Sequence record: NC_041937.1
Strand: one strand, 5' to 3'
Source of the DNA: Escherichia phage V18
Length of the DNA stretch: 64,000 nt
The notes under the pieces were generated by a model. That model did no database searches. It was given only the letters and a program-made list of their open reading frames with translations, and had not been told where the DNA came from. Numbering within the stretch: position 1 is the first letter of the stretch; each line of letters starts with the position of its first letter. A program made the translations under genes and the position numbers. Positions 22,909 through 35,388 of the stretch are shown piece after piece.

Positions 22909-23142
22909 ATGAAAGTTAAATTTCTTACAGATTTAGGGTACCCTTCCTTGGTTGACTGTGTTGGTAAAATTGTGGAAGCAAAACGGCTATCTGCAAACGA
23001 GAATGTTGTCCTGGTTAAAGGGAAGGATTTACTAGCTGCAGGTGCAGAGTCTGGCAGGATCTCTCCTGATTATATGTATTACCTATCTTTAAGTAATCTG
23101 CCAGAGCGAGGCGGTAAAGGCCTTGAAGTTGTGGAGGAGTGA
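22909..23142 (+). CDS. small acidic protein, MK[VI]K...VEE paralog family
   Basis: 77 aa; MKVKFL start, LLAAGAESG core, ends EVVEE. Confidence 0.45.
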   Translation: MKVKFLTDLGYPSLVDCVGKIVEAKRLSANENVVLVKGKDLLAAGAESGRISPDYMYYLSLSNLPERGGKGLEVVEE

Positions 23143-25031: not shown

Positions 25032-25403
25032 ATGAAACTTTTTGAGTGGTTTAAAAAGTTTAAATATAAAGCTGTAGCCATCGTGCCGTGGTCAATTCAG
25101 TGGGTTGATGAAGGTGGTCTACCAATACCTGGTGACAAAGATACTGGGTACTGGATTATGATGGAGAACGGGTTTGGAAAGCGAAAGTATACGTGCACAA
25201 ACTCTACTCGATCTGCCACTAACTGGTCTAAATTCTACTGGGGAGCCAACGAGTGGGGAAGATACGCCACCAAATCAATGGCACTTATTGGTATAGCAGA
25301 GTACATTGCAGCCAGAGATAGGGTTGGAGACACTTATTACTATACTGCGGACGATATTCGTAACAGTGTTTACGTCCCACAACCACCTGATGGAGACCGT
25401 TGA
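25032..25403 (+). CDS. hypothetical protein
   Basis: 123 aa ORF. Confidence 0.4.
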   Translation: MKLFEWFKKFKYKAVAIVPWSIQWVDEGGLPIPGDKDTGYWIMMENGFGKRKYTCTNSTRSATNWSKFYWGANEWGRYATKSMALIGIAEYIAARDRVGDTYYYTADDIRNSVYVPQPPDGDR

Positions 25404-25627
25404 TGAAAGTTAAAGTTTTAGATTCAAGCTTCTATATTGGTCAGGAGCCCTTAGTGGGGAAAGTGTTTACTGCTGTCCCTAACGAAGATTACCCCGACCT
25501 TTTAAAAATAAAAGGGGCAGATCTTATTGCCGCTGGTGCATCTCATGAATGCTTTGACAGTCAGTGGACCTACAACTTTGCCCTAGGTGAGGATGTAGAG
25601 ATAGTGGAGGACGATCATGAAGGTTAA
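25400..25627 (+). CDS. small acidic protein, MK[VI]K...VEE paralog family
   Basis: MMKVKVLDSSFYIGQ...GADLIAAGAS...EIVEDDHEG. Confidence 0.45.
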   Translation: MMKVKVLDSSFYIGQEPLVGKVFTAVPNEDYPDLLKIKGADLIAAGASHECFDSQWTYNFALGEDVEIVEDDHEG

Positions 25628-25871
25628 AATTCTTGATTCTAACGTCTACTTGGGACAATCCTTCCTGAAGGGAAAGGTAGTTCCTGCGGTATACTTTGAA
25701 GGGTTGCCGTGGGATGATCCTGTGCGGCAACATCACAGTTATGTAGGCCACAACGTAGTGTTTATCTTAGGATCAGACCTGATCGCTGCTGGTGCACCGG
25801 AATATTATTTCGGGGAAGAATCCTATTATGCCTTTGGGGCAGGGTCAGATGCAGATATTGTAGAGCTGTGA
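25617..25871 (+). CDS. small acidic protein, MK[VI]K...VEE paralog family
   Basis: MKVKILDSNVYLGQ...GSDLIAAGAP...DIVEL; tandem to previous. Confidence 0.45.
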   Translation: MKVKILDSNVYLGQSFLKGKVVPAVYFEGLPWDDPVRQHHSYVGHNVVFILGSDLIAAGAPEYYFGEESYYAFGAGSDADIVEL

Positions 25872-25883
25872 TGGGTAACCGTT

Positions 25884-26279
25884 GTGAAAAATAAACTGTT
25901 CAAAGTTACAATGAAAATTCGCGGAGCTTGGAGCGTAAAGCAAGGGCGTATCCCAGAATTTGAGAAAGACTTCTACGTAGTCTCCACCTCGGAGGAGGCT
26001 GCATGCTGGCAGGCTGGCTATGCCTATGCAAGAACCTGGTACGAAGGATACCAGACTGGGGGCTATGACGGAGAAATTATCAGCAAGGGTGTGGAAGAAA
26101 TTAATGTGTTGACAAGTAAAAATTTTGTTATAGTGCATCCAGATTCCAGAGTGAAGCATTACTGGAATGCCAGAACAAAAACTTGGACACCGTTTGCAGA
26201 TTCTGCTACACCACTTTTAAACCAAAAAGCTCTTGACTCTGCCCCGAGCTACGGGGTTGTTGAAGAAAAGCTAGACTGA
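25884..26279 (+). CDS. hypothetical protein (paralog of 28089-28484)
   Basis: 131 aa; shared block HP-S-xxYW-xxxx-WTP. Confidence 0.45.
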   Translation: MKNKLFKVTMKIRGAWSVKQGRIPEFEKDFYVVSTSEEAACWQAGYAYARTWYEGYQTGGYDGEIISKGVEEINVLTSKNFVIVHPDSRVKHYWNARTKTWTPFADSATPLLNQKALDSAPSYGVVEEKLD

Positions 26280-26593: not shown

Positions 26594-26622
26594 TTGACAC
26601 AACGCTTCAGATTTAGTATCAT
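26594..26622 (+). promoter_or_regulatory. sigma70-like promoter (TTGACA-17-TATCAT)
   Basis: -35 at 26594-26599, -10 at 26617-26622, immediately upstream of the HPF-like gene. Confidence 0.6.
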
Positions 26623-26671
26623 TGTTTTCAAAGAGAGATAGTTATTCCCTCTTCCTTAAAAGGAACACGTT

Positions 26672-26992
26672 ATGCAAATTGAAATCACTGGCAACAATGT
26701 AGAAATCACAGAAGGTATGGTATCTTTTATTTCCCGCAAAATGTCCAAGCTGGAGCGTTTACATCCCTCTGTCAACTATGCACGTGTGAGTGTAAAAGTT
26801 GAAAATGATCACCAGGAAGTTATGGCGTTCATTTTTGACAATTCTGGAAAAGAAGTTATTGCCAAAGCTAAAGGCAGTGATGCTTACGAGGCAACTGACC
26901 GTATGGTAGATGTTGCAGCACGTCAGCTGGCTAAATGCGGTGGAAAGAAAGGTAAGGGGAAAGGCAAAGTAAAGATTGACTTTGGAGAATGA
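26672..26992 (+). CDS. hpf: ribosome hibernation promoting factor / RaiA-like protein
   Basis: 106 aa; MQIEITGNNVEITEG...KLERL nearly identical to the bacterial HPF N-terminus MQLNITGNNVEITEA...KLE; similarity continues through VKVEN...ARQLAK. Confidence 0.8.
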   Translation: MQIEITGNNVEITEGMVSFISRKMSKLERLHPSVNYARVSVKVENDHQEVMAFIFDNSGKEVIAKAKGSDAYEATDRMVDVAARQLAKCGGKKGKGKGKVKIDFGE

Positions 26993-27129
26993 GGTGCTAC
27001 AATGGGTGTGATTAAGAAATTAGTCACAAATGTAGAGATTGCATGCTTTGAAATTATGTTTGCAATCGCAGTTGTAGTTAATGTGTTAGGTTACGGCTAT
27101 TAATATCAAATAATTGAGGAGACCTCTAA

Positions 27130-27399
27130 ATGAAAATTAAATTATTCAAAACTGAGCTGGCAGACAAAAACTGTGGACTGGTTGAAGGCATGATTGTTGA
27201 AGCACAACCAGTGGACTATATGAAGGTGGTTCGTGATGCCCTAGGTGAAGGTTTTGATCTGATGGAGCCAGCTCTGCGAGAAGATGTTATCGAGATGGCT
27301 AAAAAGCACACACCTGAAGGTTTGGTGGTGTTTGTTGCACCGGGTAACGGAGAAGAGTTGATTGTAACTCCGGATGTGTATGAGATTGTAGAGGAATAA
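27130..27399 (+). CDS. small acidic protein, MK[VI]K...VEE paralog family
   Basis: MKIKLFKTE start, ends YEIVEE. Confidence 0.45.
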   Translation: MKIKLFKTELADKNCGLVEGMIVEAQPVDYMKVVRDALGEGFDLMEPALREDVIEMAKKHTPEGLVVFVAPGNGEELIVTPDVYEIVEE

Positions 27400-28088: not shown

Positions 28089-28484
28089 ATGGTAAGCCTA
28101 TACCGTGTCGAGTATAGCTCGGATACTGTATACAACGTAAGAAGCAAAGATCGCAGCGACAGAGTGCAAGAAATGTATGTTCTTGCCGACAGTCCGTTAT
28201 CTGCAGCGTTCAAGGCAGGGGCTCTTGCATCTCGTTGGAAATTTGAAGGTGGATCTTTCTATGAAGAAACCCTTGAAGATTCTGTTGTTATTTCTTCTGT
28301 AGAGGTTTCAGATGACTACGAAGGGAAAAAGTTCGTAATGCGGCACCCACACAGCAATATTGCGTACTACTGGGACGTTCTGAACAACGAGTGGACCCCA
28401 GATCTTCAGAAGGCTACTGTGCTAACACCGTTTTTGGCAGATAAGTTCCCACCAGAAGGTAATTTATCTGCACTGTTTCAGTAA
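28089..28484 (+). CDS. hypothetical protein (paralog of 25884-26279)
   Basis: 131 aa; FVMRHPHSNIAYYWDVLNNEWTP versus FVIVHPDSRVKHYWNARTKTWTP. Confidence 0.45.
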   Translation: MVSLYRVEYSSDTVYNVRSKDRSDRVQEMYVLADSPLSAAFKAGALASRWKFEGGSFYEETLEDSVVISSVEVSDDYEGKKFVMRHPHSNIAYYWDVLNNEWTPDLQKATVLTPFLADKFPPEGNLSALFQ

Positions 28485-32621: not shown

Positions 32622-33160
32622 TAAGTTCTTCTCTTTTCTTTTACCGAGTAATTCGGGTTTTCTGTTCTCTTCGGTTTGAAGGGGTATGGAGATACACCTG
32701 AGTGAACAGGGTGAACAACCGAACCATTAGCTATGGCATTAGCATGGCGAAGCGGACGGGTGACGAAAGAGGGGCCGGAGGACACCAGTCACTGCCATAT
32801 GATATATGGGTGATAACCTGAAGAGTCTGAATAAGTGTTTAAGTACCAGTCAGAGGAAAAGGTGAATGGTAGCCGAAGGGGGGAGGGGGGTTTCTTGTAT
32901 CTTTAATTTGTATATTATGTATACACTTGTAAACCAATCTAATCTGAATCTGTTTACCACACAAAGCGGATAGAGACAAATATTGCCTATTAAACTTGAA
33001 TTATTTATAGAAAATACCACAACACCCCTTAAGTCTTTGATTTACACACAAATCCTACAGATATTCAACCTCCATATTTAACATACTTGTAACATATTCC
33101 ATACTCTACCTGTCTGATCAATTTCCCAACTACATTCTCATATTTTCCCTGTCTGTACTA

Positions 33161-33356
33161 CCCCTGCCCCGCCGGGAGTCCCGTCATATCTGGCTTTCCA
33201 GCAAATATCACACCCACAAATATCATTGCCTGAAGAGGGTTTCATCCCATAATACCTGCCTTACCTGAAGAGCGCTTCATACACCACGTAAATTTTTTAA
33301 TTGACCTCCCCCTGCCCCTCCGGAGAGGTTGGCTTTTCCCACACAGACCTGAAGAG
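33161..33356. repeat. cluster of short direct repeats
   Basis: cccctgcccc-g/t-ccgg-g-ag at 33161 and 33308; cctgaagag at 33229, 33264, 33348. Confidence 0.5.
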
Positions 33357-33976
33357 TCAGCCAGAAATATCTGAATAGGCCCGATCTGCCCAGTCAGGAG
33401 CCAGTAGCGACTGGAGTGCTGCCAGGCGGACGGAATGGGAATACTTCTCATTCTTATAACAATTCTCAAATATCGAGGCAGTGAGAGAAATTAATAGGCC
33501 AGGCCGTTCACACAGTGGCACAACATTTGCAACCTATCCTGTGGGGATGAATGAGAATACCTATCATTGTGAGAACTATTATCATTACGGGCAATTTAAC
33601 ATAATACCCATTATGCGCACCACTGGCGATACATACAGGGATTGATACCATGAGTTACAGTTTACACACATAACAATTATATTTCTTACTATTTGTGTGG
33701 GATATAGTTAGCAGCCAATAGATTAGATATTGACCTGTAGACTTCCAACCGTCTGGACGTCTAAACGCCCACACACCAAGGGTTATACATACATCGCTGA
33801 ATGTAAACAGGGCCGCAAAAATGCTACCATACCAGTTTGTAAATTTTTCATGCAGCACTTGACAAAGAGGAGAAAAACTTGTCTGACACAATGTCACACA
33901 ATATGACACTTTACACTGGACACACTAGGCACAAAAAAAAAAAACTGCAGTGACTAGGTCACCCCTTCAGGTGTTT

Positions 33977-34171
33977 CTATGACATAATATAAAAGCAGGG
34001 CAACTATTACAAATCTAAAGTTGCCTTGCTTGTTATGTCATGATTAACTAAATACAAGGCAACTATGATCTGATTAATAGTTTGCAGACAAACTATCACG
34101 GGGGTGATGGTTACTGCTTTTATATTATGTCGCGACTCCGTCGCGCCATGCCATTCGTTTGCATAGTTGCC
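33977..34171. repeat. palindrome-flanked iteron cluster
   Basis: 19-bp inverted arms at 33980-33998 and 34114-34132; GGCAACTAT copies at 33999, 34048, 34087 (variant) and inverted at 34017, 34163. Confidence 0.55.
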
Positions 34172-34824
34172 TTATTGTTACAGATAAAATAATTGTATTG
34201 TTAATTATTTCTTATCTTTCTATTAGTCATCTAATGATTCCAGTTAGTATAGTAACGTATAGTAAACATTAGACGACTAAATATTTCTCTGTTTATGATA
34301 ACTCACCGTAATAATTTCGGACTGTTTACGAAAAATGTTGACACCCTGGCTGATTTATGTTATGCAATTTAAACGAATAATTATTTTATGCAGGTATTGA
34401 CTATTCCGTTATTCTATGGTTGGAATAAATACTTAGCAGGCTATAGAATGGTGAGCGTACGTAAATTCTGAGATCTGTCGGCTATAGTTATACCCGATTT
34501 TTCACGTAGAACACGCTTTCGATGCTGTGTAAGTGTATGACTTATAAAGATTTTTAGTTGTTGACAAGATATTGGAGATGTGCATCAGGTTAAAATTTGT
34601 GCAATAGCGGCATTACGTGCACTTTTGGGAGAGAAAACGGGTAAAAATGGACTTGCTACCACACAATGAAAAATTATGCAATAGCTATTTTACATGTATG
34701 TTTGTACAGTGCGGGCAATTGATGGCTCGTCAATTATTCCACTTGCCAGGTAGGGCCGTTTATGGTAGGGGGAAGAGCAGACAAAAAGAAAGGGGCCTAA
34801 GCCCTTGATAATTCAGTTAAAAAA

Positions 34825-35244: not shown

Positions 35245-35388
35245 GGTGTTTTTACCTCTTAGTTAATTTTCTTACAACTTCCCTTCAAAAAAGAATATAG
35301 CAAAACTGCCGATCCCTGTCAACCAAGGATGGCATAATTTTTATGTGATCAAGGGGCTTTATTGCCCCTGACCATGTAACTTGTTGTA

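Follow-up and report, generated by a model that had tools for sequence, protein, structure and literature searches.

Does a phage-borne homologue of a bacterial ribosome hibernation factor act on the ribosomes of the host, and would it silence them, shield them or do something else? The question is raised by a small open reading frame (ORF) in the window, by which we mean the whole stretch of 64,000 nucleotides of Escherichia phage V18 (NC_041937.1) analysed here. The initial annotation had described this ORF as an HPF/RaiA homologue with an early promoter of its own. Control of ribosome dormancy by a phage would bear on the replication of virulent phages in slow-growing or stationary bacteria. 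Such a state is usual for gut bacteria, and it is a limit on phage therapy.

The hpf gene and its family

The ORF is present on the + strand and reads as it had been translated, giving a protein of 106 aa that starts MQIEITGNNVEITEG, and it is flanked by a run of small ORFs, in keeping with its described placement in an array (Table 1). The AAGGA Shine-Dalgarno sequence is kept in all Vequintavirus copies. The window itself belongs to an rV5-like Vequintavirus: the region is 96-98% identical to rV5 and to ~115 other Vequintavirus genomes, and the HPF protein is 93-100% identical in 116 of the 117 matching phage records. Identification of the gene as the Vequintavirus (rV5-type) homologue of short bacterial HPF is near certain.

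Table 1. Features of the hpf locus (window coordinates)
Feature	Position	Strand	Description
sigma-70-type promoter	26594-26622	+	-35 TTGACA at 26594-26599; 17-nt spacer; -10 TATCAT at 26617-26622
Possible leader stem-loop	26632-26652	+	AAGAGAG...CCCTCTT; weak in the window
Shine-Dalgarno-like AAGGA	26660-26664	+	7 nt 5' of the ATG; sequence reading
hpf-like gene	26672-26992	+	106 aa plus stop; ATG start; orthologue of rV5 ORF144 / ABI79209
HPF domain part	26672-26938	+	AlphaFold2 pLDDT ~85-96 per 10-residue block; Foldseek match to HPF
Lys/Gly-rich C-terminal tail	26939-26989	+	residues 90-106 (GGKKGKGKGKVKIDFGE)

An HMM search against PF02482 (Ribosomal_S30AE) gave a significant match above the curated cut-off (E 4.2e-15; 56.7 bits against a gathering score of 23.7; Pfam), with the alignment spanning positions 1-83 of the 88 in the profile. 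TIGR00741 (HPF/YfiA family) was matched with 56.8 bits against a cut-off of 40.9, and the best PDB sequence match was E. coli HPF (E 4e-15). Only the first half of the double label "HPF/RaiA" stands, as the phage protein is HPF-like rather than RaiA-like: it shares 44% identity with E. coli HPF versus 26% with RaiA, and it scores 65.2 bits with NF007780 (gammaproteobacterial short HPF equivalog) versus 22.8 bits with NF007654 (RaiA/YfiA equivalog), both below the respective cut-offs of 125 and 158. The RefSeq name 'RaiA' for the phage protein was rejected on these scores and identities, which favour HPF instead. The N-terminus, said to be almost identical to that of HPF, does match it at 12 of 15 residues, and the N-terminal strand is the most conserved motif across the whole HPF family in our alignment; in the remainder of the protein, however, identity falls to 28-47%, the overall figure being the 44% given above.

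In the AlphaFold2 model of the phage protein (mean pLDDT 85), the predicted elements are strands at residues 2-8, 34-43, 48-56 and 61-68 and helices at residues 14-30 and 71-93. The model superimposes on V. cholerae HPF with TM scores of 0.82/0.94 (Foldseek), and on E. coli HPF within the 100S ribosome (6h4n chain x) with an rmsd of 1.1 Å over 92 columns. Furthermore, all of the 35 significant PDB structure matches (Foldseek) are HPF, RaiA or pY chains. Structure prediction and superposition thus support an HPF fold for the phage protein, and neither a missing PF02482 match nor an unlike fold, two of the outcomes named beforehand as speaking against the assignment, occurred.

The novelty that the initial annotation implied does not hold, as the gene, its family assignment and its promoter were already known. 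In the rV5 record DQ832317 (2006), the gene appears as ORF144 'sigma 54 modulation factor', and a 'Sigma70-type promoter; P144' is placed immediately upstream of it. Phage HPFs, namely rV5 ABI79209 with four relatives and that of Cronobacter phage GAP32, were described by Mizuno et al. 2019 (Nat Commun 10:752), and Mathieu et al. 2020 noted the hpf gene in five new rV5-like phages; beyond these two papers, our literature search found no later functional study of viral HPFs. In ~100 related genomes the gene carries an annotation, under names including hpf, ribosome hibernation factor and RaiA. The gp144 of rV5 (ABI79209) is the same gene, with a 97% identical protein, the same position in the array and the same promoter P144, and the window allele differs from it by an extra Asn (GNNVEIT versus GNVEIT in rV5) and by R22 and V34. 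The Asn polymorphism lies at codons 8-9 (26693-26698): the window and ~20 records carry GNNVEIT, like E. coli HPF, and the GNVEIT form is found in rV5, in most other records and in a divergent lineage described below. Among the matching records are 18 named 'Campylobacter phage' (including MG065635 and MG065653; host C. jejuni), which are 97-98% identical to E. coli vequintaviruses in this region and are probably mislabelled or contaminant assemblies.

Other phage proteins invite comparison. The S30AE proteins of jumbo phages (GAP32 K4F6Q6 and Escherichia phage PBECO4 L7TII8) are likewise phage-borne and of the same fold and family, but they are only 22-26% identical to the phage HPF and fall into a different PHROG (8990 versus 12469). 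They were not retrieved by tblastn at E <= 1e-5, and from their sequences they look like an independent acquisition. With the phage bS21 and bL12 proteins of Mizuno et al. 2019, the phage HPF shares the concept of a virus carrying a host ribosome component or ligand.

Promoter, conservation and origin of the gene

The TTGACA-17-TATCAT promoter that had been proposed directly before the ORF is indeed there, and it is the equivalent of P144 in rV5. It matches the sigma-70 consensus at 11 of 12 positions with 17-nt spacing, and it lies within the 84-nt gap between the stop of the upstream ORF and the hpf start codon, where ~0.001 matches of at least 11/12 are expected by chance. Across the window, 19 sites reach at least 11/12, against 1.6 +/- 1.3 expected from 200 first-order Markov simulations of the window, which is a 12-fold enrichment. 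These near-consensus sites are co-oriented with the genes, 9 of 9 lying on the + strand before ~33 kb (e.g., at 1363, 18462, 28503 and 32594) and 10 of 10 on the - strand after ~35 kb (e.g., at 35322, 42834, 46769 and 52214). The small-ORF regions of the window thus appear to be driven by a dense array of host-type promoters. At hpf, no variation was seen among 11 copies in the -35 hexamer or in the AAACTG context upstream of it, and this extends to the lineage with an HPF of only 64-65% identity; the spacer bases differ in EcoIv14a, and in YN3 the spacer differs and the -10 element is TATTAT. Since the hpf promoter is near-consensus, conserved and a member of an enriched, co-oriented class, it is reasonable to suppose that this class is read by unmodified host RNA polymerase. 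The label 'early' is a reasonable inference from the near-consensus host-type promoter and the gene layout; transcriptome data for Vequintavirus or timing data for rV5-like phages were not found in a literature search. No strong terminator was seen upstream of hpf, and therefore read-through from upstream promoters is likely. The phage gene stands behind a phage promoter, whereas the E. coli hpf gene is part of the rpoN operon.

Between promoter and gene, at what is predicted to be the 5' end of the leader, a stem-loop (AAGAGGG/CCCTCTT in rV5) is kept in most Vequintavirus copies. In rV5 and EcoIv14a the stem has 7-8 bp (-9.9 and -12.5 kcal/mol; z -0.9 and -2.8), and in the window it contains a mismatch (-7 kcal/mol; z -1.0). 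Given these modest z values, the mismatch and the absence of the hairpin from the sister lineage, we rejected it as a solid feature. The 3' end of hpf is overlapped by a second promoter-like site at 26976-27003 on the + strand (TTGACT-16-TACAAT with a TG extension), whose -10 hexamer overlaps the ATG of a 33-aa ORF at 27002; this site could serve the gene at 27130.

The hpf gene is present intact in all 117 matching phage records, and its dN/dS of 0.04-0.10 among Vequintavirus copies (residues 1-89) clearly points to strong purifying selection on a functional gene. Conservation extends to an uncultured sister lineage, represented by metagenome and run assemblies, in which hpf is syntenic and holds the same position in the small-ORF array. 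The contigs of this lineage are 125-137 kb (the fetched loci, L003-L006 from Logan/ENA, measure 15.7-125.8 kb, and the longest contig on record has 136,793 bp). In an 8.3-kb stretch the lineage shares 15-19% with known phages at 81-88% identity, and at >20% coverage the phage collection contains no member of it. One of its copies is filed at NCBI as 'Escherichia coli'. The sister-lineage HPF (P0004) has 103 aa and is 64-65% identical to that of the vequintaviruses. Between the two lineages synonymous sites are saturated, and HPF retains 65% amino acid identity versus 36% and 58% for the flanking genes.

Outside its own cluster, the best match of the phage protein among 1.84 billion representative proteins (HMMER) is an enterobacterial HPF with 44% identity. 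A word-index homologue search gave only 5 close relatives, and the isolation of the clade is therefore taken from the exhaustive HMMER search. The closest relatives of the phage clade are gammaproteobacterial short HPFs, and the GC and GC3 of hpf match the phage background. Mizuno et al. 2019 raised the possibility of a recent horizontal transfer of the viral HPF. A recent transfer is not supported here: no cellular HPF exceeds 44% identity to the phage protein, and the base composition is phage-like, which together suggest that a gammaproteobacterial short HPF was acquired long ago. When E. coli HPF was used as tblastn query against 50,697 phage records, Vequintavirus was practically the sole cultured group matched. 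In a separate protein of 1160 aa (P0007), eight separate stretches match residues ~36-82 of the phage HPF, and this protein may, by its sequence, be a tandem-repeat S30AE-like protein.

Predicted ribosome-contact surface and C-terminal tail

A cryo-EM preprint (10.1101/2025.10.07.680626) gives K80, R83, K87 and K91 (E. coli numbering) as basic contacts common to HPF and RaiA. According to the same work, R83 contacts m4C1402, a Tyr or His at position 30 stacks on A790, m2G966 is contacted by T53 and residue 62, and D75 is conserved. We projected these published contacts onto an alignment of the phage HPFs with 101 cellular homologues. The phage clade retains K26, R29, E44, D75, R83, K87 and K91 (the last of these is Ser in the sister lineage), and hence D75 and three of the four universal basic contacts, K80 being lost. 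In phage numbering, the retained contacts are R84 (= E. coli R83), K88, K92, D76, K26 and R29.

Other positions are replaced. Y30 is Leu in both phage lineages, although Y, H or F is found in 80 of the 101 cellular homologues, and K80 is Val (Thr in the sister lineage) where 83 of the 101 have K or R. Likewise, K89 has become Gly (Ser in the sister lineage), a position with K, R or H in 93 of the 101. T53 is replaced by Phe (Arg in the sister lineage; T in 44 of 101), and H62 by Ile (Met in the sister lineage; cellular homologues are mixed, with H, R, F and V commonest). In helix 1, R17, a conserved position that is not among the contacts quoted from the preprint, is Val in both phage lineages versus K, R or H in 89 of 101 cellular homologues. 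Both phage lineages are non-basic at all three alignment positions 17, 81 and 90, whereas none of the 101 cellular homologues is, and the phage HPF has three of five basic alpha2 positions, versus four or five in 88 of the 101. Certain residues are peculiar to the phage proteins and shared by both lineages (V17, L30-H31-P32, DHQEV and AKAKG). Compared with E. coli short HPF (YhbH, P0AFX0; PDB 2rql, 6h4n), the phage protein thus keeps the equivalents of R83, K87, K91, D75 and K26, but it scores below the equivalog cut-off, has R17, Y30, T53, H62, K80 and K89 replaced, and is 11 residues longer, ending in a Gly/Lys tail that is predicted to be disordered.

In the sequence, Cys-Gly-Gly comes directly after K88, and the predicted disorder of the tail is reflected in pLDDT values of <50 at residues 92-99 and 101-104 of the AlphaFold2 model. 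It carries a net charge of +4 (residues 89-106), and its five Gly in the first 13 residues are matched by only one of the 101 cellular homologues. The extension after K88 comprises 18 residues in the phage protein, versus 7 in HPF and 25 in RaiA, whose long tail is directed at the RMF site. E. coli RaiA (YfiA / protein Y, P0AD49) resembles the phage protein in having the same fold, a predicted common site and a C-terminal extension beyond HPF length; however, besides the low identity of 26%, its tail is acidic (net -4), opposite in charge to the basic phage tail and unrelated to it in sequence. The tail also varies between isolates, with a 2-aa deletion in YN3 and frameshifts in Murica and APCEc02. 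Thus, either the exact tail sequence seems dispensable or the records contain homopolymer sequencing errors, and if frameshifts are tolerated the tail may not matter.

Published ribosome data, possible roles and neighbouring genes

Mizuno et al. 2019 expressed the rV5 HPF in E. coli and analysed ribosomes in sucrose gradients, and 70S and 100S by mass spectrometry; the gradient check that the initial annotation proposed is thus already published. In late-exponential cells, the viral HPF was present in the extract yet absent from ribosomes, and 100S was unchanged, with no shift between 70S and 100S; phage bS21 and bL12 were recovered on salt-washed ribosomes, whereas the viral HPF was not. The authors speculated that dimerisation might be prevented by competition of the viral HPF with its cellular counterpart. 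Cells were taken at an OD600 of 1, and their ribosomes were sedimented in 20 h through a cushion with 500 mM NH4Cl. We re-read Supplementary Data 2-5 of that study and found host HPF and RMF in none of the three ribosome preparations, although the viral-HPF strain had both in its crude extract. Since host HPF was likewise not retained by the procedure, the absence of the viral HPF is not readable as lost binding or as 'does not bind ribosomes', and the negative result of 2019 is uninformative on this point.

The same tables contain a pattern for host RaiA, which passed without comment in Mizuno et al. 2019. RaiA was identified by 1 peptide in the bS21 preparation and by 2 peptides and 6 spectra in the bL12 preparation. 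It is missing from the 71-protein list of the viral-HPF ribosomes, although this list reaches down to single-peptide matches and RaiA is present in the extract of that strain; there is one preparation per condition (n=1), and other identifications in the tables rest on single low-score peptides. No protein list for an empty vector was seen in the supplementary MS tables. In the extract, the amount of viral HPF did not exceed that of the host factors. The missing RaiA, taken as no more than a hint, would fit displacement from a shared site by a salt-labile competitor.

The explanation that we favour is as follows. The hpf gene would be transcribed by host RNA polymerase from the start of infection, and the HPF domain would enter the decoding channel of vacant 30S or 70S host ribosomes at the HPF/RaiA site, held there by the retained R84, K88, K92, D76, K26 and R29. 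Because contact and basic positions are lost and helix alpha2 runs out into a new, flexible Lys/Gly tail, the phage HPF is expected to be a salt-labile, fast-exchanging occupant that does not promote RMF-dependent 100S formation. As such it would compete with host RaiA and HPF/RMF, as the contact-site substitutions and the new tail would predict, and keep idle ribosomes shielded and quickly reusable for phage mRNAs. The ribosomes concerned would be those of slow-growing or nutrient-limited hosts and those idled by loss of host mRNA. We lean slightly towards binding of the phage HPF at the HPF/RaiA site and are less certain of the competition role, which taken alone is a tentative and rather doubtful proposal. 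The 2019 result, with the viral HPF absent after 500 mM NH4Cl and 100S unchanged, fits weak binding without dimerisation. However, with four conserved contact or basic positions gone, it is just as conceivable that the protein no longer binds ribosomes. In addition, an early blocker of the decoding site would inhibit phage translation too unless it exchanges rapidly, and rapid exchange is an assumption of this explanation.

Several other roles can be weighed against this one. The phage protein might be an anti-hibernation factor, i.e., a weakened HPF which drives host RaiA and HPF/RMF off dormant ribosomes and in turn gives way easily to initiation complexes; although we think this unlikely, it would allow rV5-like phages to rouse ribosomes in starved E. 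coli of the gut, and the absence of RaiA from the viral-HPF preparation would be its first trace. We would also not expect the phage protein to be a classical hibernation factor, which, like host HPF, would silence vacant ribosomes and shield them, perhaps in 100S dimers together with host RMF, and thereby shut down residual host translation or protect the ribosome pool from RNases or defence toxins while the phage takes over. Expression in E. coli did not raise 100S (Mizuno et al. 2019), the score of 65 bits stays below the 125-bit HPF equivalog cut-off, the conserved contacts K80, Y30 and K89 are lost, and a tight blocker would stop phage protein synthesis as well. A classical role would nevertheless agree with the gammaproteobacterial short HPFs as nearest relatives, with a predicted fold identical to that of ribosome-bound HPF, with the kept equivalents of R83, K87, K91 and D75, and with nuclease protection of ribosomes as an established role of the HPF family (PMC7764885).

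It is also improbable, in our judgement, that ribosome binding has been lost and that the HPF/dsRBD-like scaffold with its basic tail has been repurposed for another RNA or for a host or phage protein. The failure to find the viral HPF on purified ribosomes (Mizuno et al. 2019) would suit this possibility, but says little given that host HPF and RMF were lost in the same assay. Further points in its favour are the combination of substitutions at conserved basic positions seen in 0 of 101 cellular homologues, the isolation of the clade, with a next-best protein of 44% identity among 1.84 billion representatives, and the phage-specific residues, from V17 to AKAKG as listed above, that both lineages conserve. 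On the other hand, strong purifying selection has maintained the m4C1402-contacting residues and the basic track of alpha2, and the gene context offers no alternative partner, since all neighbours of hpf are without a family match. That hpf is a non-functional passenger gene taken from a host and now decaying is hardly credible. The frameshifts and indels in the tail region of some isolates and the lack of a known phenotype would be consistent with decay, but the low dN/dS over residues 1-89 effectively refutes it, and every one of the 117 matching phage records has an intact gene, as does a lineage in which synonymous divergence is saturated, with the gene's own promoter and Shine-Dalgarno sequence likewise conserved.

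Among the neighbours, the 89-aa ORF at 27130-27399 (+), two genes downstream of hpf, was considered as a second HPF and rejected, as it has no Pfam match. Several records (navn, nom and others) label this ORF 'sigma 54 modulation factor'; the label can be traced to a shifted annotation in APCEc02 that was propagated, the true hpf being called 'hypothetical' there. The small-ORF array contains paralogues at 22909-23142, 25400-25627 and 25617-25871 (blastp E 1e-14 and 1e-6), and a pair of 131-aa paralogues at 25884-26279 and 28089-28484 (blastp E 3e-8); no known domains were seen in these small-ORF paralogue families. A search for tRNAs and Rfam families as translation-related cargo returned none in the window, including the stretch at ~32700-34800. 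This stretch is ORF-poor, with a turn in GC skew near 33 kb, and here the + strand block of promoters and genes meets the oncoming - strand block; its counterpart is the 2.6-kb region called non-coding in the rV5 paper (rV5 104013-106618).
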